From NCBI GenBank assembly GCA_963718915.1, contig CAVRAI010000013.1:30001-62000 (forward strand): a stretch of 32,000 bases of DNA. The letters are read 5' to 3'. The DNA is from an uncultured Chloroflexia bacterium (lineage in GTDB: Bacteria > Chloroflexota > Ktedonobacteria > Ktedonobacterales > JADMIN01). Below the pieces are notes generated by a model. The model made no database searches. It was not told the origin of the DNA and was given only the letters and a program-made list of their open reading frames with translations. Made by a program: the position numbers and the translations under genes. This document shows, piece by piece, positions 140 to 30,784 of this stretch. Positions within the stretch are counted from its first letter, which is position 1. The number at the start of each line of letters is the position of its first letter.

Positions 140-157
140 GTCAGCCAAGTCAGCCAA
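140..157. repeat. 9-bp tandem duplication (gtcagccaa x2) abutting the SDR stop codon
   Basis: Two perfect copies at 140-148 and 149-157. The stop codon (cta on + strand) is at 158-160. Confidence 0.9.
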
Positions 158-1096
158 CTAGCGATAGCCCATGTCAGTTGCTGGCAGGCCTGGGTCCTGC
201 ACCTCGACCGTATAGCGCCAGCAATCCGGTTGCGTTCCATCAATGTCCGTCACGCCATAGATGCGGGCCAAGTCCGCGCTCGAGAGCACCTGCCCGGCGT
301 ACTGACGACGTCCCGTGGGATCGGCCGCCAGCGTCACAATCCCGCGCGCCACGTAGGCGGGCGTCTCCGAGATGCAGAAGTGCGGCTCGTGCGCGAGCGC
401 ATCGCGCCAGTTCTCTTCCGTCACGCCAAAGTCCTCCAGCATCTGCTCCGAGCGCATCCAGCCGGGGGTCACCGCCACTGCTGTACAACTCTCGTCTTCG
501 AGTTCAGCCGCCAACGCCAGAGCGATCCGTTCGACGTTGGCCTTCACCAGATCGTAGTAGAAGCCGACATTGCGGCGAAAGGCCTTGTTGTACTCCGACG
601 TGCCATCGGTCATCTCGACTACCAGCCCATCGCCCGTCCGCAGGATGAGCGGGAGCGCTTTGGCGCTCGTGATGAGGTGGGTATGCACCCCCATGCGCAG
701 CATGTAGATCCCGCCCGTCAGGTCATGCTCCCAGAGCTTCTTCTCCCACTGCGTGTACTTGTGGCCACCGAAGATGTCATTGACGAGGATGTCCAACCGA
801 CCGCGCTCCGCCTCGATGCGGGCCACGAGATCCTCCACCGCCTCCACATCCAAGTGATCGACGCGCAGGGCGCTGCCCTCTCCACCAGTCGCCTGCATCA
901 GCTCGCCGGTTTCCTCGATGGTCTCAGGCCGATCCATATCTGACGAACCGGTCAAGCGACTGCTGCGCCCTGTGGCGTATACAAAAGCACCAGCTCTGCA
1001 GAGCTCAACGGCGATTGCGCGTCCTGCTCCGCGGGTAGCTCCGGCCACCAACGCGACCTTTCCCTGAAGTGAGCGGTCGACCAGCTGCTCTCCCAT
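158..1096 (-). CDS. SDR family NAD(P)-dependent oxidoreductase
   Basis: 312-aa ORF with the N-terminal Rossmann glycine motif GKVALVAGATRGAGRAIA, then YATGRS. The long opposite-strand ORF 53..943 is an Arg/Pro-rich shadow. ATG at 1094-1096. Confidence 0.85.
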   Translation of the reverse strand: MGEQLVDRSLQGKVALVAGATRGAGRAIAVELCRAGAFVYATGRSSRLTGSSDMDRPETIEETGELMQATGGEGSALRVDHLDVEAVEDLVARIEAERGRLDILVNDIFGGHKYTQWEKKLWEHDLTGGIYMLRMGVHTHLITSAKALPLILRTGDGLVVEMTDGTSEYNKAFRRNVGFYYDLVKANVERIALALAAELEDESCTAVAVTPGWMRSEQMLEDFGVTEENWRDALAHEPHFCISETPAYVARGIVTLAADPTGRRQYAGQVLSSADLARIYGVTDIDGTQPDCWRYTVEVQDPGLPATDMGYR

Positions 1097-1108
1097 GATT
1101 TACTCTCA

Positions 1109-1144
1109 CTTCTTCGGCTTCTTCGGCTTCTTCGGCTTCTTGGG
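1109..1144. repeat. 9-bp tandem repeat (cttcttcgg x3 plus cttcttggg) in the SDR 5' leader
   Basis: Three perfect copies and one imperfect copy, ending 12 nt upstream of the SDR ATG on the minus strand. Confidence 0.9.
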
Positions 1145-1502
1145 CTACTGTGGTTCTTGAGACTTCGACCTTTCTTTATGCTTCTTGCTCGGTGCGATAA
1201 GACTGGTAACCCACATGCCACATGCCGCCGTCTGACAGAAATCCCCCAAAGCGCCCCCCATGACTGCGGAATGTGAGATACGTGGGAATACGTACGCTGG
1301 TTGCTCAATTTGTTCGATGCAAGGGTGCTATTGAGCGAAGGCGCTGAAGCTGGTGGCGGCGTAGCAAGCTGGAGTGATGGCCGCATGGAGCGAGCTTGCA
1401 AGCAATTGGTTCCGCGCCGCAGAATGGGACGGCCAGGGGGCAGTCTCCAGATAACCCTGCCGTAGAAGAAGCCCGCGAGACACGGCTATACGCTGCTCGC
1501 TC

Positions 1503-2477
1503 CTACACGATCAAGACCGCCTTCCCGGTCACTCGACGCTGCGTGATGTCGTTGAGCGCGTCCGCTGCCTGTTCCAGGGGATACCTGGCCGAGATGTGCG
1601 GTGTGAGCTTGCCCTCCTGTAGCCATGTGAGGAGTTGGCGCAGATTCTCCTGATTGTGCTGGGGATCGCGGACGGTGAAACTGCCCCAGAAGACGCCAAC
1701 AATTGAACAGCCCTTGAGGAGTGGTAGGTTGAGGGGGATACGGGGGATGTCGCCCGTGGTGAAACCAATCACCAGGAAGCGCCCATTCCAGGCCATGCCG
1801 CGCAGCGCTGCCTCGGAGTAGGCGCCGCCGACGGGGTCCACGACAACATCGACTCCCTGGCCATTGGTGAGGGCCTTGATGCGCTCCTTCAGGTCTTCGC
1901 TGACATAGTTGATGGTGGCGTCCGCGCCGTATTGGCGGCATATCGCCAGTTTCTCGTCGCTGGAGGCGGCCGCGATGACCCGCGCGCCGAGCACCTTCCC
2001 TAGTTCGACCGCTGCCAGACCAATGCCTCCCGCCGCGCCCAGTACCAGGAGGGTTTCGCCTGGTTGGAGGTGCGCCCGATCGGTGAGCGCATGTAGATCG
2101 GTCCCATAGGTCATCGCAAAGCTTGCGGCAACGTCGAAGTCTAACGCGTCAGGCATGGGGATGACAGTGGCTGCCTCTGCGATCACCTCTTCCGCAAATC
2201 CTCCGTAGGCGGCAATGCTGATGACTCGGTCCCCAGGCGAAACATGTTCGACGCCCGCGCCGACGGCTTTGACGACGCCGGCCACTTCCGCGCCGGGCGA
2301 GAAGGGCAGGGGCGGCTTGAACTGGTAGAGGCCCTGGATGATCAGGGTGTCAGGGAAGTTGACGCCACAGGCTTTGACGCTGATCACTACCTGGCCAGGG
2401 CCTGGCGTCAGCGACTCAATCTCTTCGACCACCAGGCTCTCTGGCGGGCCATAGGCTTTGCAGATCACTGCCCTCAT
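1503..2477 (-). CDS. NADPH:quinone oxidoreductase, zinc-type alcohol dehydrogenase (MDR) superfamily
   Basis: Begins MRAVICKAYGPPESLVVEE and has the cofactor motif LVLGAAGGIGLAAVELGK. Of two in-frame ATGs (2486, 2477), the second has GAAGGGAG about 10 nt upstream, so it is preferred. Confidence 0.85.
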   Translation of the reverse strand: MRAVICKAYGPPESLVVEEIESLTPGPGQVVISVKACGVNFPDTLIIQGLYQFKPPLPFSPGAEVAGVVKAVGAGVEHVSPGDRVISIAAYGGFAEEVIAEAATVIPMPDALDFDVAASFAMTYGTDLHALTDRAHLQPGETLLVLGAAGGIGLAAVELGKVLGARVIAAASSDEKLAICRQYGADATINYVSEDLKERIKALTNGQGVDVVVDPVGGAYSEAALRGMAWNGRFLVIGFTTGDIPRIPLNLPLLKGCSIVGVFWGSFTVRDPQHNQENLRQLLTWLQEGKLTPHISARYPLEQAADALNDITQRRVTGKAVLIV

Positions 2478-2513
2478 GCTGCGCATGCTCCCTTCTCTCT
2501 CGCTCCCATGCTA

Positions 2514-3458
2514 CTAACTGGCAGCGAAGATGCTCATGGGTAGGAACGCGCCAACCACATAGTTGGGCATATCAACGACTTCGCAGAGTTTCAGGTCCAC
2601 CGCAACACTGCAGAGCATATATGCGTCGTCAGCAGACAAAGCATATGCGCGCGTTAGATAGTCGATCATGTGTCGGATAGCCTGGCGCGCGGCCTCACGG
2701 ATGTCCGGGTTGATGCCCTCGGTCACATGATAGGCATCTGTGTTTGTGCGCTGGGCGAGCGGGCCGGCCGTACGGAACTGCGGCTCCGCCACCGGGCGGT
2801 CTTTGTGAACAGTTAGGCGCACGACGGCACGCATCGGCGTCTCAATCGCCGTCCCGCAGACCTCGCCATCGCCTTGGGCAGCATGTCCGTCACCCATGGA
2901 AAAGAGCGCGCCCGCGACCTCCACCGGTAGGTAGAGTCTCGCGCCGCGCGTCAGATGCTTCGTATCCAGGTTGCCACCATGCCGGTAGGGTGGGATCGTC
3001 GAGAATGCGCCTTCAGCAGCTGGAGCGAGCCCCACCTCGCCACAGAAGGGTTCCAGCGGAATGCGAATGCCTGGCGCAAATTCGGCCCAACCATCCGAGA
3101 GACGCCAGACCTTGAGCGCAGGATCGGCGAACTCGTCCGCCAAGAGGCCGAATCCTGGGATCAACGCCGTCCAGCCCCAGTCGGCTGGCTGGAAGTCCAC
3201 GAATTCAACCTCAAGCGTATCGCCAGGCTCCGCACCCTCGACATAAATAGGGCCGTTGACCTGATCTACTTGCGAGAAATCGAGGGTCTGTAGGGTCTCC
3301 ACCGTGGCATCCGGTCCAATTTGCCCGCATGAGGCATCCAGGCAATCAAACTCAACGGTGGTGCCTGACGCGATGCGCGCGATGGGTGGGATGCTATGGT
3401 CCCAGGCAAGATGCCACTGCGCTCTCGCGACGTGAATGGTGCGTCCTGTAGTAGACAT
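2514..3458 (-). CDS. acetamidase/formamidase family protein
   Basis: 314-aa ORF. Its N-terminal TVEFDCLDASCGQIGPD and the GGNLDTKHL / GDGHAAQGDGEVCGTAIE segments are typical of the FmdA/AmdA family. AAAGGA lies 7 nt upstream of the ATG. It sits 27-36 nt upstream of the quinone oxidoreductase gene on the same strand. Confidence 0.8.
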   Translation of the reverse strand: MSTTGRTIHVARAQWHLAWDHSIPPIARIASGTTVEFDCLDASCGQIGPDATVETLQTLDFSQVDQVNGPIYVEGAEPGDTLEVEFVDFQPADWGWTALIPGFGLLADEFADPALKVWRLSDGWAEFAPGIRIPLEPFCGEVGLAPAAEGAFSTIPPYRHGGNLDTKHLTRGARLYLPVEVAGALFSMGDGHAAQGDGEVCGTAIETPMRAVVRLTVHKDRPVAEPQFRTAGPLAQRTNTDAYHVTEGINPDIREAARQAIRHMIDYLTRAYALSADDAYMLCSVAVDLKLCEVVDMPNYVVGAFLPMSIFAAS

Positions 3459-3789
3459 GGCTCTGTCCTTTCAGTTCTCGACCAGAAGTCGTCTCGACAC
3501 AGACTCCCGACGCCATACAGTTTCCAATGGAATTGCCTGAAAGGCATTGTAAGTTACTTTTGCGGTCAGCGCAGCCAGGTGTCAAGAGCCTGGCAATGCG
3601 CTCGTAAGGTTCGGCAGGGTAAGCCCGGTGATGGAGAAGCTCGGCTCGATGCGAAGATGCATCGTATGGGCTAGTTTGTTTTGGTTGTACGCTGCCTGTC
3701 GCTATGGCTTGAAGCGGGCGTTTGCGCTGTCCGCGCACAACACGCTACTCTAAGGTCACATTGGGCGAATTCTCCTGGTTGACCAGTGA

Positions 3790-6036
3790 TCAAAGGACAT
3801 CTTCGGGGCGAATCGGCAGACGTCGGACGCGCTTGCCCGTAGCGGCGAAGATGGCGTTCGCGACCGCCGGGGCGATTGGTGGGAGAGCAGGCTCACCCAG
3901 CCCTGATGGCGTGTCCCTGCCTGGTGCGAAATATACCTCGATGTCTGGCATCTCACGCAGCCGCAGCTGCTGGTAATCGTCGAAGTTGGCTTGCTGGACA
4001 CGACCACTTGCGAAGGTGATCTCGCTTTTGAGCGTGGCACTCAACCCCTGGACGATGCTGCCCTCGATCTGCGCTTCTGCCAAGGTGGGATTGATGACCA
4101 GACCGCAATCCACCGCGCACACCACGCGATGCACCTGAACAATCCCATCTGACCCGACCGAAACCTCTGCCACCTCCGCCATGTAGGTGTCGGCGTTACT
4201 GTAATAGTATGCTGCAATGCCTCGCCCCCAGCCGGTCGGTAGGGGCGAGTCCCAACCGGCTTTGCTTGCCGCCAGGTCCAGGACGGCCAGTAACGGCCCA
4301 TTGGACGCCAGAAGACCCCGGCGGAATCGGTAGGGATCGGCGCCGACTGCGGCAGCGATCTCATCGACGAAGCTCTCGATGGCAAAGGTGGTATAGGAGT
4401 ATTCGGCCCCGCGCCAGATCGTGACGGGAATGCCAAGCGCGGCGGTGGTTCCGGATGCCTGGGCAGCGGGAATCGCGTACGGCAGTTCAGCGCCCGCCCC
4501 GACATCGGAGCCCATGCTCTGTGCTGCAAGGTTGTGCTGCCAGCTTTGCACTTTGCCCGCCGCGTCCAGCGTTGCCTGCAGGCGATGGAACGCGGCAGGT
4601 CGATAGAAACCCGATTGTATGTCATCCTCTCGGGTCCACATTACCTGGACCGGCTTGCCGATCGCTTTTGCGACACTGGCTGCCTCGGTCACAACATCAC
4701 TGGCTGCGCGTCGGCCAAAGCCGCCACCGGAGGGCAGGACATGCACCATGACTTGTTGCAAGGGCACGCCGGTCGCCTGTGAGGCCGCGACCTGGGCTCC
4801 CTGGGGATCCTGTGTCCCGGTCCAGACCTCGCAGTGTCCATCCTGCAATCGCACCGTGCAATTGAGCGGCTCCATGGGGACATGTGTCTGATAGGGTGTC
4901 TCATAGATTGCGTCCACCACGCGCGTCGATCCCGGTACTGGGCCAGGCTGTGGCGTGTGTGCGGCGAGATACTGGCGCAGGGAGTTGCTTGTGAGCGAGG
5001 CATTTACGCCTTCGTTCCATCTGATATCCAGTGCGCGGCGACCCGCGATGGCTGCCCACGTATGGTCTGCTACCACGGCCATACCACTGGGAATCGGCAC
5101 AATCTGGCGCACACCGGGAATCGCTTGTGTTTGGGTCGCATCGAAGGTGGCGACCGTGCCTCCAGGCACAGGGCAGCGGGCTACGACAGCGAAGAGCATT
5201 CCTGGCAGGCGTACATCCAGGCCGAACTGGGCACTGCCATCAACCTTGGCTGGAGTGTCGAGCCGAGGAGCGCGGGCGCCAATCAGGCGGAACTGGCTCG
5301 CTTGCTTCAGTTGGCCTAGTGTGTATGGCTGCCTGGCCGCCGCGGCGGCGAGCTGGCCATAGGTAAGCTTGCGACCGCTGGAGGGATGGAAGACAACGCT
5401 ATCCTGGGTGCGACAGGTCGAAGCTTTCACGCCCCACGTCTGCGCCGCCGCCGCCACCAGCAACGCACGCGCCTCCGCGCCGGCGTATCGCAGCTTCGCA
5501 AACGAGCCGGAGATGCTGCCACTCCCGGTGGTGCGCTGGTTGCCATATTGTGGGTCTGGCGGGGCTAATTGGGCACGTACACGGCTCCAGTCAGCATCAA
5601 GCTCCTCGGCCACAATCATCGCCAGCCCAGTGAGTGTTCCCTGTCCCATCTCGGAACGAGCGACCGTGATCGTCACAGTGTTGTTGGGGTCAATGCGCAG
5701 CCAGATGTTTGGGCTGAACGGCTTGGTGGGCCGGAGCTGGTCCTGCTGTCGATTGTGCAGATTGAAACCAATGAGCAGACTGGCGCCCGCAGCACCTGTT
5801 ACGGCTGTGGCAATGAGCAACTGGCGGCGACTGAGCCGCAGAGCACGACTAGTGGAAGGAGGGAACGCTGGCGGTGGTTCGTCTGATTCGTCTGATATGT
5901 CATCTGATACCTTGTCGGAAGAGGAGTCGACATTTGAAGATTGGGGCTCACGATGCTCCGCCGTTGCTTCGAATGTGCTCGTCTCTTCTGAGTGATCCGT
6001 ATTCGGCTGCTCAGGTGAAGTGCTGGAGTCGCTCAT
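3790..6036 (-). CDS. xanthine dehydrogenase family molybdopterin-binding subunit (IorB / aldehyde oxidase-like), Tat-exported
   Basis: 748-aa ORF with the twin-arginine motif LSRRQLLIATAVTGAAGASLLIG. Family-typical segments are RSEMGQG, GGGFGRR and the C-terminal GLGEPALPPIAPAVANAI. AAGGGA lies 7 nt before the ATG, and the gene starts 21 nt downstream of the 2Fe-2S subunit gene. Confidence 0.85.
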   Translation of the reverse strand: MSDSSTSPEQPNTDHSEETSTFEATAEHREPQSSNVDSSSDKVSDDISDESDEPPPAFPPSTSRALRLSRRQLLIATAVTGAAGASLLIGFNLHNRQQDQLRPTKPFSPNIWLRIDPNNTVTITVARSEMGQGTLTGLAMIVAEELDADWSRVRAQLAPPDPQYGNQRTTGSGSISGSFAKLRYAGAEARALLVAAAAQTWGVKASTCRTQDSVVFHPSSGRKLTYGQLAAAAARQPYTLGQLKQASQFRLIGARAPRLDTPAKVDGSAQFGLDVRLPGMLFAVVARCPVPGGTVATFDATQTQAIPGVRQIVPIPSGMAVVADHTWAAIAGRRALDIRWNEGVNASLTSNSLRQYLAAHTPQPGPVPGSTRVVDAIYETPYQTHVPMEPLNCTVRLQDGHCEVWTGTQDPQGAQVAASQATGVPLQQVMVHVLPSGGGFGRRAASDVVTEAASVAKAIGKPVQVMWTREDDIQSGFYRPAAFHRLQATLDAAGKVQSWQHNLAAQSMGSDVGAGAELPYAIPAAQASGTTAALGIPVTIWRGAEYSYTTFAIESFVDEIAAAVGADPYRFRRGLLASNGPLLAVLDLAASKAGWDSPLPTGWGRGIAAYYYSNADTYMAEVAEVSVGSDGIVQVHRVVCAVDCGLVINPTLAEAQIEGSIVQGLSATLKSEITFASGRVQQANFDDYQQLRLREMPDIEVYFAPGRDTPSGLGEPALPPIAPAVANAIFAATGKRVRRLPIRPEDVL

Positions 6037-6516: not shown

Positions 6517-6766
6517 GTGCTCCCCCTTCGTGATCACGCAATCATGTATCCTTCGGACGGAAGCCAAGCGCGCTCATTTACAGCTACTCGTGCGCAAAAA
6601 TACTGGGCGTGATGGACCGCCGCTGACATTCCTTAGTCTGAAGTCGGCGAGAGAAAGTAGAGAAGGTAGAGATGATCAGGTGTGGCAATGTGACATGATG
6701 CAGACCAGAGGCACTGCGAAGGGCAAAGACTGGTAAGGTGATACACAGCAGGGAAGGAGACGTCTG

Positions 6767-7369
6767 ATGTGCGGCAGATATGAGATCGTCGACGGCAAAC
6801 AGATTTTCGTCCGTTTCGGAGTCGCCAACGCGATACCGGAGATGCTGGCGAATCTCGATGTGCGACCGACACAGCAGGTACCGGTGCTCCTCACCGATCA
6901 CGAATTACAGTTGATGAAATGGGGGCTGGCGCCGTCGTGGGCCAAGGATGAGTCGGTCGGACACAAAATGATCAACGCTCGCTCCGAAGGAATCGCGGAG
7001 AAGCCCTCGTTCAAGAGGCCGCTACGCACCCAGCGCTGTCTGCTGCCTGCCTCAGCGTTCTTCGAGTGGCAGGGGGTGAAGGGAGCCAAGGTTAAATACC
7101 GCATTGGACGGAAGGACGGGGAGATGTTCGGGCTGGCGGGTCTGTATGATGTGTGGAAGAGTCCCGGTGGCTACGAACTGACGACGTGTACGATCATCAC
7201 ATGCCAGCCGAATGCGGTGCTGGCCCCGATTCACAATCGGATGCCGGTGATCCTGCTGCCTGAGGATGAGGATGCCTGGCTCGACCCGGACATGACCGAG
7301 GTGGAGGCGATCACGAGCTATCTGCGGCCTTACCCTGATGAGCTGCTGGAGGCGGTTCGGGCGGCGTAG
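6767..7369 (+). CDS. SOS response-associated peptidase (SRAP / YedK / HMCES family, DUF159)
   Basis: Starts MCGRY, which is the catalytic Cys2 signature. Also has NARSE, RCLLPASAFFEW and IHNRMPVIL segments. GGAAGGAG lies 8 nt upstream. Confidence 0.9.
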   Translation: MCGRYEIVDGKQIFVRFGVANAIPEMLANLDVRPTQQVPVLLTDHELQLMKWGLAPSWAKDESVGHKMINARSEGIAEKPSFKRPLRTQRCLLPASAFFEWQGVKGAKVKYRIGRKDGEMFGLAGLYDVWKSPGGYELTTCTIITCQPNAVLAPIHNRMPVILLPEDEDAWLDPDMTEVEAITSYLRPYPDELLEAVRAA

Positions 7370-10122: not shown

Positions 10123-10124
10123 AG

Positions 10125-13122: not shown

Positions 13123-13163
13123 AGGGCACGGGCGGTTCCTCTCTTCTCCCGGTATCGTTCCCG

Positions 13164-21054: not shown

Positions 21055-21801
21055 GTGATGATGATCCTGCTCGACGCATGGCAGTTGATCGCGCCGCCGC
21101 CCAACGACCGGCACGGCCCACTCGCGCCGCTCCTGCTGTCGCTGACGTTCCTCACGGGGCTCGTGGACGCCTTCAGCTACTTGGCTCTCGGACATGTGTT
21201 CGTGGCGAACATGACCGGCAACATCGTGTTCCTGGCCTTTGCCCTGGCGGGCGCCAAGGGCTTCTCCATTGCTGCCTCGCTGCTCGCCCTCGCCGCCTTC
21301 GCCCTTGGAGCGTTTGTCGGTGGCCGATTGAATACCGAGCTGGGTGGACACCGCGGTCGTCTGCTCACCATAGCAAGCGCCATTGAGGCAATCCTCGTCG
21401 CTGGCGCTCTGATCCTCGCCGAGGTCAGCGCTCCGTCGCGACTCGGGAGTGGCAGCGGACCGGAGCAGTACGGCCTTATCGTCCTGCTCGGCCTGGCGAT
21501 GGGCCTGCAGAACGCTACCGCTCGCCACCTGGCGGTGCCCGATCTTACGACCACCGTCTTGACCCTGACGATCACCGGGATCGCCGCCGATTCTCACCTG
21601 ACTGGCGGCGCTGGGTCGCGGCTGGGTCGGCGTGGCGTTGCGGTGCTAGCCATGTTTCTTGGCGCAGTGATAGGCGGCTTGCTTGTGGTCGGTGGCAGGG
21701 CCATGATCAGCCTGGTTCTCGCACTCCTCGTGCTGGGCATAGTTGCTGCCAACGCTGCGGCCGTCTCCAGGGCTAACCCGCCCTGGGCGCATGCCCCGTG
21801 A
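21055..21801 (+). CDS. YoaK family (DUF1275) membrane protein
   Basis: LLLSLTFLTGLVDAFSYLALGHVFVANMTGNIVFLAFAL is the family-typical N-terminus, followed by multiple TM segments. AAGGA lies 8 nt upstream. Opposite-strand ORF 20671..21597 is a shadow. Confidence 0.8.
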   Translation: MMMILLDAWQLIAPPPNDRHGPLAPLLLSLTFLTGLVDAFSYLALGHVFVANMTGNIVFLAFALAGAKGFSIAASLLALAAFALGAFVGGRLNTELGGHRGRLLTIASAIEAILVAGALILAEVSAPSRLGSGSGPEQYGLIVLLGLAMGLQNATARHLAVPDLTTTVLTLTITGIAADSHLTGGAGSRLGRRGVAVLAMFLGAVIGGLLVVGGRAMISLVLALLVLGIVAANAAAVSRANPPWAHAP

Positions 21802-23009: not shown

Positions 23010-23035
23010 AGCAGTACCATTCAGCAGTACCATTC
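23010..23035. repeat. 13-bp tandem duplication (agcagtaccattc x2) upstream of the HIBADH-like gene
   Basis: Perfect copies at 23010-23022 and 23023-23035. Confidence 0.85.
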
Positions 23036-23062: not shown

Positions 23063-24004
23063 GTGAACACGACCATCAACACGACAAGCCACGGTGAAGA
23101 GCAGAAGAAACCCAACGTGGGCTTCATCGGCATGGGGCACATGGGCAGCCGCCTAGCCGCGCGCCTCCTCGACGCAGGCTACCCCCTCACGGTCTACGAC
23201 CGCACGCCCGAGCACACGCAGCCGCTTGCCCAGCGCGGCGCTAAGACCGCAGCCACCCCCGCCGAGATAGCGTCGGTGTCCACCATTGTCTTATCCAGCC
23301 TTGCCGACGATGCCGCCGTGGAAGCGGTGCTGCTCGGCCCAGAGGGCGCCGTTGCGGCGGCTCGCCCCGGCACAACCTTCATCGAGATGAGCACCATCCT
23401 GCCGGAGACGTCGCGCAAGCTCGCTGCGGCCGCACAAGAACATGGGCTAACCGCGTTGGACGCCGCCATATCCGGCAGCACACCCCAGGCGGAGGCGGGT
23501 ACGCTCGTCGTGCTCGTCGGTGGGGAGCAGGCGGCCTACGACCGCTGCCTGCCGGTCCTCTCGGCGCTTGGCCAACGCGTGTTCTACATGGGCCAAAGCG
23601 GGATGGGCACAACGATGAAGCTGGTCGTCAACACGCTGCTGGGCGTGGACATCCAGGTACTGGCGGAGGCCGTCTCCCTAGGCGAAAAGGCGGGCCTGGA
23701 GAAAGGACGTCTTCTCGACGTGCTCGGCCAGACGGCCGTGATTTCGCCCCGTCAGAAACTCGCCATGGAGAACGTCCGGCGGGAACACTATCCCGTCACC
23801 TTCGCACTCGAGCTCATGCACAAGGACTTCGGGCTGATCTTGCGTGAGGCGGAGGCGCTGCGTGTCGCGATGCCGGTGACGGCGGCTGCCGAGCAGGTCG
23901 CCACCGTCGAGCTGTCCAGCCGGGCGGGTGGTGATATCACAGAAACGATCCGCTGGATGGAGGAGCTGGCGGGGGTGCTAGCACCGGAAGGGACGACGAG
24001 GTAA
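23063..24004 (+). CDS. NAD(P)-dependent oxidoreductase, beta-hydroxyacid (3-hydroxyisobutyrate / 6-phosphogluconate) dehydrogenase family
   Basis: VGFIGMGHMGSRLAARLL dinucleotide-binding motif, then GTTMKLVVNTL and a downstream helical domain. The apparent start is a GTG at 23063. Confidence 0.85.
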   Translation: MNTTINTTSHGEEQKKPNVGFIGMGHMGSRLAARLLDAGYPLTVYDRTPEHTQPLAQRGAKTAATPAEIASVSTIVLSSLADDAAVEAVLLGPEGAVAAARPGTTFIEMSTILPETSRKLAAAAQEHGLTALDAAISGSTPQAEAGTLVVLVGGEQAAYDRCLPVLSALGQRVFYMGQSGMGTTMKLVVNTLLGVDIQVLAEAVSLGEKAGLEKGRLLDVLGQTAVISPRQKLAMENVRREHYPVTFALELMHKDFGLILREAEALRVAMPVTAAAEQVATVELSSRAGGDITETIRWMEELAGVLAPEGTTR

Positions 24005-24052
24005 GCTAATCAATCAATGGACATGCGGCCGCAAACACGCCTGGCGTACTAA

Positions 24053-27000
24053 TTAAGTGTTTGAAAGGCCTTCTTTGCTAGGTTTGTGCCAGGCGAGTGA
24101 GCAGAAGCCGGATGCCGAATGTGCGGATGCATTCTTTCGCACGCCGATGAGCTGGAAGGCCCAGAGGGAGCGGTACCAGCGGACGCGCTCCAGGCGACCA
24201 ACGGCGACCAGGTAGCGGGCGTCACGCAGGGTGCGGCGCAGGTCGTGGGCGAGGGCAGGCGCCATGGCCAGGGGGAGGCGTCCCGTCTCATCCTCCAGGA
24301 CTACGAAACCGACGCCTTTGGCGGTTGGTGGGCGTTGGGCGGAGATGGGCCAGCCCGCCACACGCACAACCCGCCCCTCCGCCACGTGTGCCAGATCGGA
24401 GATGCGCAACACCCCCCGGCGATCCAGTTGCGGGCGGTAATGGCGCATCGGATGTGGGCGTGTGGAGAGGCCGAGCAGCTGGTAGTCCAGCGCGTCACGC
24501 TCAAAGGCCGTGAGGGCTGGCAGGGTGGGGACATCCGCGAGCGCATCGAGTGGCATCTCCCAGGTGAGGGTCAGTTGTTGCGGATGTTCGGCAGTTGTAT
24601 CTGCCATGGCCGTGGCATTGCTGCGGCGTCGCTTCGCGCCTTTGGGATGGGGGTCTACCAGTGGCCAAAGTTCGCGGAGTTGCCAGAGGCGTTGCCGCCG
24701 GTCCATGCGCGGGGCGAGGCCGTCGCAGGCGCCTGACCAGACGAGCGCTTCAGCGGCGTCACGGGTGAGTCCAGCGGGACGGAGGCGGACGAGCAGATCC
24801 CAGAGCGAGGTAAAGGGGCGCTCGTGGAGGTGGCCGGACTCGTCGAGGGTACGACGTTCCCACAGGATGGCGCGCGCGAGATCCTCGCCGATCTGGCTGA
24901 CCTGACGCAGCCCAACCCGAATGCCCCAGCGCCTCCCACCGGGCGCATGTCCACTCCCTACGCTGCCAGCGGGTTCCACCGAGAAGCGGTCCTCACTGGC
25001 GTTCACATGCACGGGGAGAACGGGGATGCGGAGGCGTTTCGCCTCCTCCAGCACCACATGCGGCGGGAAGTAGCCCGCGGGTTGGGCGGAGAGGAAGGCG
25101 GCGAGATAGTGGGCGGGGTAGTGCGCCTTGAGCCAGGCGGTCTGGTAGATGGTGCGGGCAAACTCGGCGGCGTGGCTTTTGCAGAATCCGTAGCCAACGA
25201 AGGCGGAGACGGCCTCGAAGACACGATCCGCCGCCTCGTGTGTCTCGCCACGGGCCAGCGCGCCCCCGACGAAGCGCTGGCGCATCGCCTCCATCTCGCG
25301 GCGGCTGCGCTGGTGGGACATGGCGCGGCGGAAGCCATCCGCGTCGGCGTAGCTCAGCCCAGCGAAGCGGTGGGCAATTTCAAGGATCTGCTCCTGGAAG
25401 AGCAGGATGCCCTCGCTCTCGGCCAGGATGGGGCCGAGGACGGGGTGGGCCGTCCAGAAGTCGTCGGTTGGCGTGCCCTTCCAGGGGGTCTGCACGGCAT
25501 CTCGCTGTTGCCGAATATAGCGCGCCGCCTGTGCGCCCTGCGCAGATTGCTTGGAGTCTTGGGCCTGCTTGTCCAGGCGGCGTTCGATGTAGGGATGGAC
25601 GAAGCCGCCCTGGATGGGGCCGGGGCGAAAGAGCGCGGTCTGGACGATGAGATCGTTGAAGGTGGTGGGCTGAGTCTGGGCGAGCAGATGCCATTGGCCG
25701 GGACTCTCGATCTGGAAGACCGCCAGCGTCTGGCCGCTGCGGATGAGGGCCATCGTGCGCGGATCAGGGGGCGTGGTGGGCAAATGGTCGATGTCGGGCC
25801 GCTCGCCAGTGGTTCGCTCGATAAGGGTGAGCGCCTCCTCGACAGCGCCGAGGGTGCGCAGGCCCAGCAGGTCAAACTTGATGAGGCCGAGACGTTCGAC
25901 GTCGTCTTTATCGATCTCCAAGGCGCGCACGCCATTGGCTGAGACGCGCACGGGCAGCAAGGTGGCCAGCGGCTCACGGGTGAGCACCATGCCGCCGTTA
26001 TGGAGGCTGAGGTGGCGTGGCAAGCCGAGGAGCTTCGGAGCGATCTGTAGCAGGAGGGGCAGCCGTTCCAGGCAGCGAGCGCGGACAGATGCGTTGGGGA
26101 GCGTAGAGAATGTGGCGATAACCTGGCGTAGCTCGCTTTCGTGGCTGAGCAACTCCTCGGCGTCGGCGTGGTGTGAGAGCCGTTTGGTCATGCGGTTGAC
26201 CAGTTCCAGGGGGTAGCTGAGGGCTTTGGCGGCGTCGCGCAGGGCACTCCTGGCCCGGTAGGTGATGACATTGGCGACCATAGCGGCGTGGGCCTCGCTG
26301 TAGGTGCGCTCGACGTAGCGGATCAGTTCGTCGCGGCGGTCGGACTGGACATCGACATCGATATCGGGCATGCCGCCGCGGTCAGGGTTGAGGAAACGCT
26401 CGAAGAGGAGCTTATGGTGGATCGGGTCAACGCCAGTGATGCCCAGGCAGTAGGCGACCAGACTATTGGCGGCGCTGCCCCGACCGCTGACGCGGATGCC
26501 CATGGCGCGGGCGGCGTGCATGATGTCGTGGACGCAGAGGAAGAATTCTTCAAGCTGCAATTGCGCGATAACGGACAGTTCGTGGTCGAGTTGTGTGCGC
26601 TGGGGGCTGCCGGGGAGCAGCGCCTCAGGTAGATTGGCATAGCGGGTTGCGAGGCCGGACTCGCTGAGGGCGCGCAGATGGGTAGTGGGTGTTGCGCCCT
26701 CTGGCAGGGAGACCTGGGGCGCGGTGCAGGCGCCTTTGAGCAGAGAGAGGTGACAGCGCGTTGCGATCTCGCCGCTGGCGCGCAGGGCGGCGCGGCCTTG
26801 GGGAACGCGCGCAAAGAGGGATGCCAGCGCGCGCGCGGACTTGAGGTGCGCCTCGTCGTTGCGGGGGCGTTCGGCGTGGGGCTGATCCACGGTGAGGCCG
26901 AGGCGCGTACAGGTCATGAGGTCGTAGAGGGCGCAGTCGGCGCGGGATGCGTAGTGCACCCCATTGGTGGCGACGTAGCGGAGACCTGCCTCCTCGGCGA

Positions 27001-27646
27001 GCTCGGCAAGTTGATGGAGCAGGATCAGGGTATCGGGCAGCTTGTGGTGTTGCAGCTCGACGAAAATCCGGTCAGGCCCGAAGGCGTCATAGTAGCGACG
27101 CGCGGCCTCCATGGCGGCCTGGCGCCTGCCCGCGAGCAGGAGTCGCATCAGGGTTCCGTCACGTCCGCCGGTGAGCAGGATCAGACCGTCTGGTTCCGCG
27201 GCCAAGTCTCGCCAGGGGATGACTGGGGCATCGGGGTGGGCGAGGTTGGCGTCGGTGAGCAGGCGGCAGAGTCGAGCATAACCGGTGGCGTTCTCGGCCA
27301 GTGCGACGGGGTGGGTGGGGAGAGGCGAGATGCCGAAGATGGGTTCGGCAACGGCTAGCTCTACGCCGATGATGGGCTGAATGGCGTATGAGGCGCAGGC
27401 GGTTTGGAAGCGGACGACGCCAGCGAGGGTCATGTGGTCGGTGAGGGCGAGGCTGCGCATGCCGAGCGCAGCTGCCCGCGCGACCAACGCCTCAGGCGAG
27501 GAACTGCCACGGAGGAAGCTGAACGCGCTGGCCAGGTGCAGCTCGACGTAGGCAGTGTGGGCGTTACGGTTGGTGGCAGGATGCTGGTCGGCATGATGTG
27601 TAGCGAGCGTATTAGGCGTATCACTCAGGTCAGTCAGGTCAGTCAT
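24053..27646 (-). CDS. dnaE2: error-prone DNA polymerase III alpha-type subunit DnaE2
   Basis: PHP domain YVELHLASAFSFLRGSS...LALTDH, polymerase core segments (PDIDVDV, GLIKFDLLGL, FQIESPG, YGFCKSHA) and an OB-fold region. I place the start at the ATG at 27644-27646 (MTDLTDL), which overlaps the upstream small ORF by 8 nt. The track start 27841 lies inside that ORF. Confidence 0.9.
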   Translation of the reverse strand: MTDLTDLSDTPNTLATHHADQHPATNRNAHTAYVELHLASAFSFLRGSSSPEALVARAAALGMRSLALTDHMTLAGVVRFQTACASYAIQPIIGVELAVAEPIFGISPLPTHPVALAENATGYARLCRLLTDANLAHPDAPVIPWRDLAAEPDGLILLTGGRDGTLMRLLLAGRRQAAMEAARRYYDAFGPDRIFVELQHHKLPDTLILLHQLAELAEEAGLRYVATNGVHYASRADCALYDLMTCTRLGLTVDQPHAERPRNDEAHLKSARALASLFARVPQGRAALRASGEIATRCHLSLLKGACTAPQVSLPEGATPTTHLRALSESGLATRYANLPEALLPGSPQRTQLDHELSVIAQLQLEEFFLCVHDIMHAARAMGIRVSGRGSAANSLVAYCLGITGVDPIHHKLLFERFLNPDRGGMPDIDVDVQSDRRDELIRYVERTYSEAHAAMVANVITYRARSALRDAAKALSYPLELVNRMTKRLSHHADAEELLSHESELRQVIATFSTLPNASVRARCLERLPLLLQIAPKLLGLPRHLSLHNGGMVLTREPLATLLPVRVSANGVRALEIDKDDVERLGLIKFDLLGLRTLGAVEEALTLIERTTGERPDIDHLPTTPPDPRTMALIRSGQTLAVFQIESPGQWHLLAQTQPTTFNDLIVQTALFRPGPIQGGFVHPYIERRLDKQAQDSKQSAQGAQAARYIRQQRDAVQTPWKGTPTDDFWTAHPVLGPILAESEGILLFQEQILEIAHRFAGLSYADADGFRRAMSHQRSRREMEAMRQRFVGGALARGETHEAADRVFEAVSAFVGYGFCKSHAAEFARTIYQTAWLKAHYPAHYLAAFLSAQPAGYFPPHVVLEEAKRLRIPVLPVHVNASEDRFSVEPAGSVGSGHAPGGRRWGIRVGLRQVSQIGEDLARAILWERRTLDESGHLHERPFTSLWDLLVRLRPAGLTRDAAEALVWSGACDGLAPRMDRRQRLWQLRELWPLVDPHPKGAKRRRSNATAMADTTAEHPQQLTLTWEMPLDALADVPTLPALTAFERDALDYQLLGLSTRPHPMRHYRPQLDRRGVLRISDLAHVAEGRVVRVAGWPISAQRPPTAKGVGFVVLEDETGRLPLAMAPALAHDLRRTLRDARYLVAVGRLERVRWYRSLWAFQLIGVRKNASAHSASGFCSLAWHKPSKEGLSNT
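27625..27645. repeat. 9-bp tandem repeat at the small ORF stop / dnaE2 start overlap
   Basis: tcaggtcag x2 plus tca on the + strand. The minus strand reads ATG ACTGACCTG ACTGACCTG, encoding MTDLTDL, and includes the TGA of the upstream ORF. Confidence 0.85.
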
Positions 27647-27941
27647 AGACACGTTCCAGGATCCACACTTCGCCGATAGCCTCGTAGTAGATGTCGCAGA
27701 CGAGGTCTTCATGCGCGGAGGCGCAGCGTAGTCGGTAGTAGGTGCGCTCACTGCGGCCCTTGTGATCCTTGCGATCCTTGCCCCCTGCGCCACGTACGCT
27801 GTGCTGCTCCCACCAGCGATCCATGAGGCGCCACGGCTCATTGACCTCCAGCACGCGGTAGGTGAGGCCGCGCCAGTGGATGGTGGCGGGCTTGCCGTCG
27901 GCGAGTGTCACCCTGATGGGGTGGTAATAGACGTGGGTCAT
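27639..27941 (-). CDS. small conserved-looking protein of unknown function between imuB and dnaE2
   Basis: 100 aa from the ATG at 27941, with GAGGTGAT upstream. MTHVYYHPIRVTLADGKPATIHWRGLTYRVLEVNEPWRLMDRWWE...RTYYRLRC..EDLVCDIYYEAIGEVWILERVYD has a beta-rich, Trp/Tyr-rich pattern. It starts 30 nt after the imuB stop, and its TGA overlaps the dnaE2 ATG (TATGACTGA). It may belong to a DUF family associated with Y-family polymerase / dnaE2 loci, but I cannot verify that. Confidence 0.65.
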   Translation of the reverse strand: MTHVYYHPIRVTLADGKPATIHWRGLTYRVLEVNEPWRLMDRWWEQHSVRGAGGKDRKDHKGRSERTYYRLRCASAHEDLVCDIYYEAIGEVWILERVYD

Positions 27942-27970
27942 GGATATATCACCTCGTATCGCACCGTCTC

Positions 27971-29296
27971 TTACCACCGATGGATGCCATGGGGGATCTC
28001 GTCCGAAGCATCATCGGTGTCAGAGTCGGCGACATCGGCGGCGGGGCGCGCAGGATGCCCCAGTCCTTCAGCCACATCAGCCAGGTCGGCCACATCGGCG
28101 CCCAGGGGTGCGAGACGGGAGCGGTCCTGGTCGAAGATAGCGTCGGGGGCGGTGAGCAGGCTCTGAAACAGGAGGGGCTTGCCGTGGCGACGGGCGAGGA
28201 GGTCGGCAAGCTCCTGAGTGGCGGTGATGCGGCGGGCGCGTTGGGGCCAGAAGGCATGTTGCGCGGGATAGCGCGGAGTGAGATGAGAGACGATGAGATG
28301 TAGATCCTCGATGGCTTCATGGGCATGAACGCGGGATTGAAAGAGCGGGGCAAGCATGCGTTCCAGCGTCTCCGTCAGGGCATGGCCACCGGAGAGGGGT
28401 TGTGGGAGTGTGCGCGTGATCGTGGTGATGCGCTCGGCATTGCCCTGGGAGTTGGCCGTTGATCCACCCTCCCAGTAGAGACGCAGTTCCAGCGTGTGTC
28501 CGTGGAGGCCACGGCGCGCGAGACGAGATGCGACCTCACAGGAGAAGGGCGCCAGGCCGAGCAGCAGACGGTCAGGGGTGACGGGGGCCGTCAGGCGGAG
28601 GCGGAAACGCAGATGTAGTGGCGCAGCCGTGGGCTGGAGGGACAGGGGATCCTCACCGCGAGCGATGGTGGCGAGCAGGACGCCGAGGTGGGCGCCGAAC
28701 TGGCGACGGAGATCGTTTTCGTCGAGCCGCGTGAGGTGCAGGAGGGTACGGGCGCCATAGTCTTCCAGCCGGGAGACGGCCTGGGCGAGCGTGTGAGGAG
28801 TAAAGATGGTCGGGTTGGCGAATTGGAGATGTTCGAGCGCGGCGATGGGCAGGCGGCGTAGCAGGTCGGCGGTCTGCTCACGGGTCAGAACGGTCACTGG
28901 CGCAGGTGTGCGCAGCAGGTCTACGAGGGCGAGCTGGGCGAGGATGCCGCTGGGGGCAATGGCGGCGCGTAGCGTGATCCGCTGGTTGGCCAGGCGGGTG
29001 ATGAGCGCCTGGACGACGGCGACGGCCTCGGTGTCGGTGCAGGGTCCGAGGTCAAGGAGGGCGCTGTCGTCTCCGAACCGCTGGAGGTATGGCGTCAGCT
29101 GATAGCAGGCGGTGAGCCACGCGGGCCATTGATCGTCGCCGACGTGTTTTGTGTGCGAGAGGCAGCGGACCCAGGCCAGGTGGCGGGAGACACCAGCCTC
29201 TGATGAGAGAGACGAGAGAGACGAGAGAGACGAGAGAGATGCTTGGGAAGATAGAGCAGCCAGGAAATCAGGCTTTCTCGTAGGCATTGTCGGCAC
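27971..29296 (-). CDS. imuB: ImuB-like catalytically inactive Y-family DNA polymerase
   Basis: Y-family thumb/HhH and little-finger patterns are present: AAIAPSGILAQLA, LLRRLPIAALE, LRRQFGAHLGVLLATIARGEDP. The acidic catalytic DxD/E palm residues are absent. The track ORF begins with a TTG at 29377, which is the -35 of the predicted promoter. I place the start at the GTG at 29296 (GGGGAAGGGGAG 9 nt upstream) or the ATG at 29287. Confidence 0.75.
   Translation of the reverse strand: MPTMPTRKPDFLAALSSQASLSSLSSLSSLSSEAGVSRHLAWVRCLSHTKHVGDDQWPAWLTACYQLTPYLQRFGDDSALLDLGPCTDTEAVAVVQALITRLANQRITLRAAIAPSGILAQLALVDLLRTPAPVTVLTREQTADLLRRLPIAALEHLQFANPTIFTPHTLAQAVSRLEDYGARTLLHLTRLDENDLRRQFGAHLGVLLATIARGEDPLSLQPTAAPLHLRFRLRLTAPVTPDRLLLGLAPFSCEVASRLARRGLHGHTLELRLYWEGGSTANSQGNAERITTITRTLPQPLSGGHALTETLERMLAPLFQSRVHAHEAIEDLHLIVSHLTPRYPAQHAFWPQRARRITATQELADLLARRHGKPLLFQSLLTAPDAIFDQDRSRLAPLGADVADLADVAEGLGHPARPAADVADSDTDDASDEIPHGIHRW
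29205..29240. repeat. 9-bp tandem repeat x4 in the imuB N-terminal region
   Basis: gagagagac x3 plus gagagagat. It encodes SLSSLSSLSSLSS on the minus strand. Confidence 0.9.
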
Positions 29297-29331
29297 AGGC
29301 AGCGTCTCCCCTTCCCCATATCGTTGAACAA

Positions 29332-29343
29332 GAACATCCGTTC
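29332..29343 (-). promoter_or_regulatory. LexA-type SOS box (Cheo-box core GAAC-N4-GTTC)
   Basis: The + strand reads a GAAC atcc GTTC c at 29331-29344, a perfect palindromic core. It lies 6 nt downstream of the predicted -10 of the imuB operon promoter. Confidence 0.6.
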
Positions 29344-29349
29344 CACTAG

Positions 29350-29377
29350 AGTATCGGCGCGGGGGGATGGCGGTCAA
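29350..29377 (-). promoter_or_regulatory. sigma70-like promoter of the imuB - small ORF - dnaE2 operon
   Basis: The minus strand reads TTGACC (29377-29372), a 16-nt spacer, then GATACT (29355-29350). Confidence 0.5.
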
Positions 29378-29380
29378 GCG

Positions 29381-29400
29381 ACAGAGACGGACAGAGACGG
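29381..29400. repeat. 10-bp tandem duplication (acagagacgg x2) immediately upstream of the imuB promoter -35
   Basis: Perfect copies at 29381-29390 and 29391-29400. Confidence 0.85.
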
Positions 29401-29751
29401 CGACTGCGTTGTTGGAAGCGGAAAGTCGTGGGCTGGACTGTCGAGAGATGTAGGGAGCTGGGACTTGCTGAGGATGATAGGAGCTAGCGAGGGGAGACCG
29501 AGGAATTGAGCGCCGTCACTTAGAGTGTGGAGCATGGCAGAGTTACAACTCTCTGAAGTCTTTTTGCCGTCGAGGGTCGCAAACGTTGACTGGTTCTGTA
29601 GAATGATGCTGACGAACAAGCAGCGATGAGTGTTGAGATGATGCGACGCATGCGATGCACATGCAGTGATGCACAGGCAGTGGTGAGATTCGCCAGGCCG
29701 TTTATGACGCTTGACGTGGCATCCTCGTGGGTTGAAGTGAGTCTCGTGCGA

Positions 29752-29770
29752 GAGGAGAGAGGAGAGAGGA
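29752..29770. repeat. 7-bp purine repeat (gaggaga x2.7) forming the ribosome-binding region of the 29772 gene
   Basis: The sequence is gaggaga gaggaga gaggat, directly followed by the ATG at 29772. Confidence 0.8.
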
Positions 29771-29771
29771 T

Positions 29772-30668
29772 ATGGGCAGGGAGCAGGCGTATTCCTCAGA
29801 GTTGTCGCAGTACCTTGATGGCGCCATTGCCGATGCTGAGAAACAGCGCGCAAGCGCCACCCAACCGACATCTGCCCAAGCTGGCGGAGTTGTCGGGGAA
29901 GCGGTCACAATGACCGTATGGGACTCGATGCGAGCAGCACTGAGTCGCGCTGTGCGGCGTTCCCTCCTGAGGACAATTGTCGCACTCTTTCCGCTCCTCG
30001 CGCTTGTGGCCAGTACAGCATTGCAGGCATTTGGGCAGGGCGCGCTGTGGACTATCCCGGCGCGTGTGGTCCTGACCGGACTGACGCTCTTCCTGCTCTG
30101 GCATGCCTGGCAAGTCGTACGTTACGTGCGGGGAAGAATGCCCCAGCGCCTCCTGCGACGGCGTGTGCAGCCTGGTCGTTACTATGAACCACCTACCGCG
30201 TCGGAGATGTTCATGCCGCTCATCGTTGGAGTTCTTGACCTGCCTGCATTGCTGAGTCTCTCCTTCGCTGTGAGTCAGCCACATCTCGTGCTCGCCGCTC
30301 TGATAGCACTTCCGGTAGTGGTCTTGGTCCTTGTTACAGTGGTCATCGCCGCCGTGTCGGGTTTCGGCGCTGTTGGGGCGGTTGGAGGGCTCGATCAGGT
30401 GTCACATGCGCCAGCTCGACCTGTGTCGGTGGCCTCGTTGGCTGCGTTGGACGAGCGGATTACGCGTCTCTCGCAGATACGCGAATGGCTAGGTGACGAC
30501 ACGCTCCGAGCGATGGTGGACGATGTGATTGGGCAACAGGTGAGGTCAGCGGCGAGACGACAGGTGACGTTTTCGTTTCTCATTGGGGTTATTTCGTTGG
30601 TGTCCGGATGGTTGCTCTCTGCGGTGAGTCCTGTCGCGACGCTGACCAACCTTTTTCCGGGACGTTGA
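29772..30668 (+). CDS. hypothetical multi-pass membrane protein
   Basis: 298-aa ORF preceded by a GAGGAGA x3 tract. It has four or more hydrophobic segments (IVALFPLLALVASTALQAF, VVLTGLTLFLLW, LVLAALIALPVVVLVLVTVVIAAV, FSFLIGVISLVSGWLL). I recognise no family. It is divergent from imuB. Confidence 0.6.
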   Translation: MGREQAYSSELSQYLDGAIADAEKQRASATQPTSAQAGGVVGEAVTMTVWDSMRAALSRAVRRSLLRTIVALFPLLALVASTALQAFGQGALWTIPARVVLTGLTLFLLWHAWQVVRYVRGRMPQRLLRRRVQPGRYYEPPTASEMFMPLIVGVLDLPALLSLSFAVSQPHLVLAALIALPVVVLVLVTVVIAAVSGFGAVGAVGGLDQVSHAPARPVSVASLAALDERITRLSQIREWLGDDTLRAMVDDVIGQQVRSAARRQVTFSFLIGVISLVSGWLLSAVSPVATLTNLFPGR

Positions 30669-30758
30669 TGCTGAGGCGACATGCAGACATGAAGTGTCCT
30701 CGACGGTGTTGGCTATTACCCCAGGCGAGGTGGCTCACGACGGACACGGACCGGGGAC

Positions 30759-30784
30759 ATGGGCGGGAGAGATGGGCGGGAGAG
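30759..30784. repeat. 13-bp tandem duplication (atgggcgggagag x2)
   Basis: Perfect copies at 30759-30771 and 30772-30784, in the spacer between the two unknown genes. Confidence 0.85.

Follow-up and report, generated by a model that had tools for sequence, protein, structure and literature searches.

Dense short tandem duplications, mostly of 9-bp units, in a 32-kb stretch of a Ktedonobacterales genome

The stretch of DNA analysed here, called the window throughout, comprises 32,000 nucleotides from an uncultured bacterium of the Ktedonobacterales (assembly GCA_963718915.1, contig CAVRAI010000013.1, positions 30,001 to 62,000) and is crowded with short head-to-tail tandem duplications, most of them with a unit of 9 bp. 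These arrays were called by Tandem Repeats Finder (TRF) and by a separate exact-period scan. TRF returned 46 rows, among them 19 distinct period-9 arrays, and gave 3.6-4.2 copies for four arrays of the window. The scan found perfect duplications of at least two copies at unit lengths of 8 bp (1), 9 bp (15), 10 bp (2), 11 bp (2), 12 bp (0) and 13 bp (2). Overall, the window holds about one array per 1.5 kb. Essentially all the repeats listed in a preliminary description of this DNA were recovered, nearly all at the coordinates given there, except that an 11-bp array placed at 14677-14704 lies about 10 bp away, at 14667-14695. Three repeats of that list of perfect or near-perfect copies are imperfect (14230-14255, 15959-15979 and 19282-19303), and the list lacked the arrays at 11351-11368, 15514-15535, 10870-10885 and 16985-17014 as well as imperfect 9-bp arrays at 4163, 6650, 21285, 28068 and 29641. 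The window carries no transposase gene, and Rfam and tRNA scans of it gave zero matches.

Gene context was established with Pfam searches, a gene caller based on codon usage, for which the Pfam-supported genes were the training set, and alignments to relatives. The latter were sampled as 26 dnaE2-flanking loci from genomes and metagenomes plus six more carrying database gene calls, designated here by L numbers. The closest relative of the window is L035. The DnaE2 protein assigns the window to uncultured Ktedonobacterales; it is 81-82% identical to those of species-representative genomes, and the best protein in a large collection reaches 85%. The order imuB (27971-29377)-DUF6504 (27639-27977, minus strand)-dnaE2 (24053-27646) was present in all relatives examined, and the DUF6504 stop codon overlaps the dnaE2 start (ATGACTGA).

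Several arrays changed their assignment once gene starts had been revised. The true start of dnaE2 is the ATG at 27646; the mechanical open reading frame (ORF) 24053-27841 is too long by 65 codons, and its upstream extension overlaps the conserved DUF6504 gene in a different frame. The array at 27764 (27758-27781, 2-2.7 copies of 9 bp), formerly attributed to dnaE2, actually lies in the DUF6504 gene, and the array at 27625 (27621-27645, 2.3-2.8 copies of 9 bp) covers the DUF6504 stop (27639-27641) overlapping dnaE2 codons 1-8. The start of the Dyp peroxidase gene is probably the ATG at 16932, nine bases past a GGAGG. The stretch upstream of this ATG differs from L002 by insertions or deletions (indels) of 14 nt and 22 nt, and because such indels would not be tolerated in coding DNA, the arrays at 16951-16973 (2.6 copies of 9 bp), once placed in the coding sequence, and 16985-17014 (three copies of 10 bp, 85% matches, where L002 lacks 14 nt) are assigned to the Dyp 5' leader. 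Similarly, the 9-bp array GAGAGAGAC at 29205-29239 (3.9 copies), which had been put in the gene body of imuB, could occupy an N-terminal extension of this gene, although a position upstream of its probable true start, an ATG near 29129, is more likely. The array at 29380-29400 (2.1 copies of 10 bp) is probably upstream of that start as well. The region 29130-29490, which contains this conserved 10-mer pair, shares 81-88% identity with L001 and L002. In the window it has two open frames, yet it was called intergenic in L036; it may represent a small ORF missing from the annotation, a regulatory region or a leader that is conserved.

With these boundaries, the true gene interiors of the window contain 9-bp units only. 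Such in-frame arrays were found in the N-terminal region of an iorB-like molybdopterin subunit ORF (3790-6036, minus strand; 2.1 copies at 5878-5896, codons ~47-53), in ORF 9016-10122 (minus strand; four copies at 9863-9898 with 85% matches and a perfect core at 9868-9885), which is without Pfam match and adjoins a sigma-70 gene, in a DinB_2-family gene (11146-11634, plus strand; two copies at 11351-11368) and in the DUF1345 gene (19293-20123, minus strand; 2.8 copies at 19543-19567). Another, in the Dyp coding sequence, encodes DLN-DLN (two copies at 16255-16272), and the array at 27764 in the DUF6504 gene completes the series. Imperfect 9-bp arrays of 2.1 copies with 90% matches lie within the iorB-like gene (4163-4181) and a DUF1275 gene (21285-21303). 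A degenerate 9-bp periodic stretch with 75% matches (28068-28099), encoding repeats of Ala-Asp-Val type in the C-terminal region of imuB, is common to relatives. As the preliminary description had proposed, units not divisible by three are kept out of gene bodies in the window and occur between genes, across stop codons or, in the case of an 11-bp array of two copies (15514-15535), within the last 28 codons of the membrane-protein ORF 14795-15598, where only a dispensable C-terminal tail is changed.

Four arrays run across a stop codon besides the one at the DUF6504 end. A 9-bp array of 3.6 copies (12577-12610, units TCTCGTAGG, TCTCGCAGG and TCTCGCAAG) crosses the TAG stop of a CAP-domain gene (11892-12584) into the spacer before a SnoaL-like gene (12617-13105, plus strand), whose own stop (13103-13105) is covered by a 10-bp array of 2.5 copies (13098-13122). 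An imperfect 10-bp array of two copies with one site of mismatch (15959-15979) lies at the Dyp stop codon (15970-15972), and an 11-bp array of two copies with one mismatch (19282-19303) at that of DUF1345 (19293-19295).

The remaining arrays are found between or beside genes. At the left end of the window, GTCAGCCAA (136-157; 9 bp, two perfect copies, 2.4 by TRF) stands directly 3' of the stop of an SDR gene (158-1096, minus strand), and CTTCTTCGG (1109-1146; 9 bp, 3.7 perfect copies, 4.2 by TRF) is located 13 nt upstream of its start codon; both are non-coding. Further along are an imperfect 9-bp array (6650-6672, 2.6 copies, 92% matches) in the gap between an iorA-like gene and a gene for an SOS-response-associated peptidase (SRAP), a non-coding 8-bp array (10870-10885, two copies) that precedes the start of the sigma-factor gene, at 10802, by ~68 nt, and a probably non-coding 9-bp array (13164-13185, 2.4 copies) between the SnoaL-like gene and a carbonic-anhydrase domain whose Pfam match begins at ~13316. 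An imperfect intergenic 14-bp array (14230-14255, two copies) is formed by the 12-mer ACAACACCCGTT recurring past a 2-bp difference; the non-coding 11-bp array TGAGGCGGTTG (14667-14695, 2.6 copies) lies ~100 nt upstream of ORF 14795-15598, and a 9-bp array (18342-18359, two copies) separates a cupin gene from ORF 18650-19069. The 13-bp unit occurs twice in intergenic DNA, upstream of an NAD-binding dehydrogenase gene (23063-24004) at 23010-23035 (two copies) and at 30759-30785 (2.1 copies). Finally, an imperfect 9-bp array of 2.1 copies (29641-29682) overlaps a 14-bp array of 2.1 copies, and a 7-bp array of 3.0 copies (29750-29770) lies in or upstream of the unannotated ORF 29374-29871.

The abundance of these duplications was compared with Markov simulations of order 1, 3 and 5 (200 each) and with 433 kb of control DNA from eight taxa (Sinorhizobium meliloti pSymA/pSymB, Escherichia coli K-12, Rhodococcus pRHL1, Deinococcus MP1, the Ralstonia megaplasmid and three distant dnaE2 loci). 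The simulations gave 0.12-0.24 nine-bp events (maximum 2), ~0.06 ten-bp events and none with units of at least 12 bp, so that the enrichment over these null models is ~100-fold. Among the controls there were eight perfect duplications with 9-bp units and 14 with units of at least 9 bp; the corresponding densities are exceeded in the window ~25-fold and ~20-fold, respectively (Poisson p < 1e-15). The density reported in the preliminary description is real, and the enrichment is due to the lineage rather than to base composition. The control spectrum (8 bp 7, 9 bp 8, 10 bp 2, 11 bp 1, 12 bp 2, 13 bp 1) also has its mode at 9 bp. The units are mutually unrelated in sequence, the sole exact matches being one orthologous pair and one likely coincidence, which agrees with the earlier view that they do not form a dispersed repeat family. 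Taking window and relatives together, the tetramer CTGA/TCAG is found 16 times in repeat units against 5.8 expected (2.8-fold; p = 3e-4 uncorrected, ~0.04 corrected), an enrichment that is marginal; GAGA, AGCA and CAGA are somewhat over-represented too.

The predominance of 9 bp was examined in a pool of the window and the Ktedonobacterales loci with duplicates dropped (270 kb, of which 200 kb are gene interiors and 53 kb intergenic). Gene interiors show a sharp peak (8 bp 7, 9 bp 29, 10 bp 3, 11 bp 1, 12 bp 2, 15 bp 1), whereas the intergenic spectrum is broad (7 bp 10, 8 bp 2, 9 bp 8, 10 bp 8, 11 bp 5, 12 bp 3, 13 bp 3, 14 bp 1, 15 bp 1), with a Markov expectation below 0.3 at 9 bp or more for the intergenic DNA. 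The ratio of 9-bp to 10-11-bp arrays is 29 to 4 in interiors and 8 to 13 between genes (Fisher p = 2e-4), in line with the initial proposal of a high-rate duplication process filtered by selection, and the coding/non-coding contrast between lengths divisible by three and the rest is also significant (Fisher p = 9e-5). Loci with database gene calls gave seven coding arrays at 9 bp and none at 10-13 bp, against three at 9 bp and three at 10 bp in intergenic DNA. In L010, 11 of the 13 nine-bp arrays lie in gene interiors, and the spacers hold one array each of 7, 8, 9, 10 and 11 bp. Viewed through the reading-frame filter of a gene-dense genome, a broad process whose non-coding mode is 9-10 bp and whose tail extends to ~13-15 bp accounts for most of the sharp peak at 9 bp; 9 bp dominates mainly as the shortest favoured length that keeps the frame. 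The peak in the controls (8 of the 14 events of at least 9 bp) is what a generic filter of this kind predicts. The mechanism fixed at exactly 9 bp that had been suggested for the window is not supported, since in pooled non-coding DNA 9 bp is about as frequent as 10 bp and numbers then fall through 11, 12 and 13 bp, ordinary bacteria peak at 9 bp too, and the larger 9-bp share of non-coding events of 9-13 bp in the window (4/8, against 4/19 in relatives) is not significant (p = 0.18).

Array intensity differs widely among the relatives. Perfect arrays of at least 9 bp number ~66 per 100 kb in the window, ~68 in L010, which has 13 nine-bp arrays in 23.7 kb, and ~47 in L012; they number 16-31 in L001, L003, L004, L005 and L035, 8-13 in L002, L037 and L039, and 0-4 in L038 and L040, with ~3 in the controls. 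Arrays of this type are carried by independent assemblies of relatives, Illumina and nanopore metagenome-assembled genomes alike.

Comparison of orthologous loci, as advised in the preliminary description, revealed differences in copy number by whole units, both between L010 and L003 and between the window and L002, L001 and L035. The most extreme case is an array of 10.8 perfect copies of CAGCATACT in L010, which corresponds to ~4.8 variant copies at the same site in L003, between flanks that are ~95% identical. This 10.8-copy array is bracketed in L010 (9169-9315) by an inverted repeat, CCTGCCCTGG ... CAGGGCAGG; flanking inverted repeats across all arrays showed no excess over random positions. 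The Dyp leader (~300 bp) of the window is ~90% identical to that of L002 apart from three independent tandem-repeat indels, two of them expansions in the window and one in L002 (2.9 copies of 11 bp against a single copy in the window). The array at 27625 is single-copy in L035, L001 and L002; that at 27764 has one copy in L035, and the segment is missing from L001/L002; and the array at 29205 forms a 30-42-nt insertion relative to L001/L002. An imperfect two-copy counterpart of the DLN-DLN array exists in L002, and this duplication is therefore older; the 10-mer pair at 29380 is likewise among the old arrays.

Changes within arrays were observed as well. The array at 16951 is equal in length to a degenerate 9-periodic stretch in L002, yet 9/23 positions differ. 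At 29380, two copies of CGTCTCTGTC in the window correspond to two copies of CGCCTCTGTC in L001 (8454-8473), with the same C-to-T change in both window copies, and a two-copy counterpart is also present in L002 at about 8430-8450. The matching substitutions suggest homogenisation of adjacent copies or recurrent re-duplication in one register, and the two arrays together therefore point to turnover or homogenisation inside arrays. In the dnaE2-imuB region, indels between the window and L001/L002 include 11 of 9 bp, five of 6 bp and seven of 12 bp. In the same region of L010 and L003 (an alignment of 78% identity), L010 has seven 9-bp insertions and one of 18 bp while L003 has one 9-bp insertion, which suggests an insertion bias in the array-rich lineage. 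Near-identical pairs were uninformative as to polymorphism at the population level: L003 equals L011, L005 and L006 (99.8% identity) differ by one 9-bp indel that is not a tandem copy, and the indels between L007 and L015 are not divisible by three.

Our preferred reading, to which we assign a probability of roughly 60%, is that the arrays are short loci of the variable-number tandem repeat (VNTR) type, neither a repeat family nor a functional element. They would be the product of a tandem-duplication activity that is specific to the lineage and unusually high, with whole units subsequently gained and lost. The comparisons show that units of ~9-13 bp, and some shorter ones, are duplicated head-to-tail anywhere in the genome, and that the resulting arrays gain or lose copies by single units and collect point changes. 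They also show that selection purges frame-breaking lengths from gene interiors, where 9-bp units remain almost alone, while units of 10, 11 and 13 bp persist between genes, across stop codons and in dispensable tails. Copy number would change by slipped-strand mispairing in replication or repair, which is the best-supported engine of expansion and turnover because gain and loss of whole units is its classic behaviour. The gap in intensity between close relatives might reflect an altered trans-acting replication or repair factor or an altered balance of unit gain and loss.

The first duplication at each site may be a step apart from later expansion and would often be independent of microhomology. 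Among 60 two-copy arrays with units of at least 9 bp, junction microhomology was 0 bp in 28, 1 bp in 9, 2 bp in 2 and 3 bp or more in 21, and the proportion 28:9:2 for 0-2 bp matches blunt duplication with chance extension. Junctions of the 14 control events are likewise microhomology-poor. Microhomology-poor short duplications thus seem to be the bacterial norm, of which this lineage has ~20 times more. Three or more perfect copies, up to 10.8, were reached by 12/72 arrays.

Several observations weigh against our preferred reading or limit its reach. Classical slippage needs microhomology at the junction, yet 28/60 two-copy arrays have none, so founding duplications may arise otherwise. Among the non-coding arrays of the window, 9 bp remains the most frequent length (4-7 arrays, varying with gene starts). 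The pooled intergenic spectrum dips at 8 bp, where 2 arrays were observed and interpolation between the adjacent lengths gives ~8.6 (p ~0.009), a dip which may mark a distinct component from 9 bp upward that simple slippage does not predict. The relatives' loci all flank dnaE2 and amount to ~400 kb altogether, and gene calls were made mostly by a codon-usage heuristic.

The junctions lend some weight to a different origin, conceivable but on balance unlikely, in which a break staggered by 9-13 nt between the strands is repaired by overhang fill-in and by a homology-free union of the ends that resembles non-homologous end joining (NHEJ), slippage only expanding some of the arrays. Such breaks could be made by a transposase or integrase, through insertion then excision or through an aborted transposition event; an RNA-guided nuclease, or nicks lying close together on opposite strands, could also produce them. 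Zero microhomology in about half of the two-copy events would be expected from such a process, as would an intergenic spectrum that seems to begin at 9 bp past the 8-bp dip, and lengths of 9-13 bp match the range typical of target-site duplications, as made by IS4-type elements. Ktedonobacter is moreover very rich in transposases (PMC3236041), and overhang fill-in with end joining has been implicated in short tandem duplications of eukaryotes (PMC9879193). Nevertheless, a search of the window and 23 relatives' loci for terminal inverted repeats with 4-13-bp flanking direct repeats yielded two weak matches only, with 4- and 6-bp flanks. These ~300 kb thus contained no convincing element of this kind, and the reading as transposon footprints was rejected. 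The exact 9- and 10-mers show neither target motif nor palindromy (0.21 against ~0.25 by chance), unit lengths are variable, and some arrays have 3-10.8 copies. The proposal of the preliminary description that 9-bp target-site duplications left footprints which later expanded is not supported either: the same search speaks against it, as do the lack of a target motif, the 3-4 copies reached in the window and 10.8 in L010, and the shifts in orthologous copy number. The transposases that do occur by dnaE2 in relatives are of DDE_Tnp_1, DDE_3 and IS605 OrfB types, which make duplications of 0-4 bp. Their genes, including IS605 OrfB/TnpB-type ones, lie in L037 (15572-16389, 20912-22005) and L040 (469-2482, 14015-14812, 21047-21892), and these two transposase-bearing relatives hold few tandem duplications. 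The commonest transposase group in K. racemifer is likewise COG0675, of the IS605 OrfB type (PMC3236041). End joining fares no better as a sufficient cause: S. meliloti has several Ku/LigD systems (PMC6379672) and is nearly devoid of such duplications, so that NHEJ alone is rejected, and the occurrence of the same microhomology-poor junctions in controls at 20-fold lower density indicates that they are not special to this lineage. A bolder reading, which we consider rather doubtful, holds that some Ktedonobacterales lineages, including the window genome and L010, possess a dedicated or derepressed activity making microhomology-free duplications from ~9 bp. It could be a staggered-cutting nuclease or transposase-derived enzyme whose cuts are filled in and joined bluntly; a defect of replication or repair with a loop-size threshold of ~9 nt is the other candidate.

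We attach little probability to the idea that the arrays are maintained for a selected function, as three-residue protein repeats or DNA motifs near gene ends that would be useful, for instance as linkers lending flexibility, as direct repeats in regulation or as contingency loci that can switch. Many arrays do occupy gene starts, gene ends and linker regions, but purifying selection acting on random insertions also predicts terminal placement. Three lineages retain the 10-mer pair upstream of imuB, its two copies having changed alike, and the imuB C-terminal region is 9-periodic in several relatives; most arrays, however, are lineage-specific insertions missing from the nearest relatives, units are unrelated in sequence, genes of every kind and spacers are affected, and the signature of contingency loci, long short-unit tracts in the promoters or 5' coding regions of surface genes, is absent. 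That errors in assembly or polishing, or base composition, produced the arrays has only a minute probability. Markov models of orders 1-5 yield 0.1-0.2 nine-bp events, arrays in genes keep the reading frame, and like arrays, several of them orthologous, recur in independent assemblies; because these differ in platform and sample, an assembly artefact is very unlikely.

Other features of the window deserve mention. A full-length SRAP gene (6767-7369) and a separate fragment with only the C-terminal third of the domain (13865-14164) both align to the one SRAP gene that L001 and L002 have. Located in the repeat-rich, poorly coding region 12600-14800, the fragment is probably what remains of a pseudogene. 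Identity to L002 at the DNA level is 86-94% in the Dyp-cupin (15938-17980) and acetamidase (2733-3499) regions and only 79% in the dnaE2-imuB region, an unevenness that could reflect differing constraint or recent exchange between lineages. The GC skew is strongly positive (0.13-0.25) across the minus-strand-transcribed dnaE2-imuB block (24000-31000).

If the differences in intensity reflect a heritable change in replication or repair, these bacteria would offer a natural system for studying the origin of bacterial short tandem duplications, a step that is poorly understood in that most events, controls included, lack the microhomology which slippage models require. Should a dedicated duplication activity exist, it would represent a built-in, genome-wide source of three-residue insertions and of variation in spacer length. 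In any case, indels and three-residue insertions in these genomes stem in large part from the arrays. Gene starts and alignments become harder to call because of them, which affected several earlier gene assignments, and they would serve as strain-typing markers for this uncultured soil group.

Literature searches found no paper describing the feature in Ktedonobacteria. A survey across the tree of life reported prokaryotic short tandem repeats with 6-9-bp units above simulated expectation and a preference for multiples of three in coding DNA (Genome Biol 2025, PMC12699852); it covered units up to 9 bp only and did not mention Chloroflexota or Ktedonobacteria, whereas the effect in the window amounts to 20-25 times real bacterial controls and reaches 13 bp in non-coding DNA. 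The target-site duplications of DDE transposons resemble the arrays in being direct duplications of ~9-13 bp, just as about half of the two-copy cases here are free of microhomology, but the arrays have no fixed length, no resident matching element and no target preference, often exceed two copies and vary in copy number between orthologous sites. The fill-in by CST/Pol alpha-primase in eukaryotes also has short tandem duplications as its product and would be expected to leave blunt, microhomology-free junctions; the evidence for it is confined to eukaryotes and to engineered breaks whose overhangs measure 43-50 nt (PMC9879193), whereas the present data show no breaks, no Ku/LigD and no primase-polymerase. 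Contingency (phase-variation) loci are long switching tracts of 1-8-bp units, in contrast to the 9-13-bp units in 2-4 copies found here, which are frame-neutral where they lie inside genes and occur in housekeeping and enzyme genes. Dispersed families of the repetitive extragenic palindrome (REP), miniature inverted-repeat transposable element (MITE) or clustered regularly interspaced short palindromic repeat (CRISPR) type place the same sequence at many loci, unlike the unrelated units of the window, which gave no Rfam matches. The closest parallel lies in bacterial VNTR or short-minisatellite loci used in multiple-locus VNTR analysis (MLVA), which share head-to-tail units of ~9-13 bp without spacer, copy numbers varying between relatives, conservation of the frame within genes, decay by point changes and unrelated unit sequences. 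MLVA typing loci include in-frame coding repeats of 9-12 bp, for example the vrr loci of Bacillus anthracis. The window differs from them in its far higher density, in the low copy number of most arrays (2-4) and in the involvement of all gene classes and spacers rather than of a few hypervariable loci; its arrays are an extreme, lineage-specific case of a known kind of repeat.

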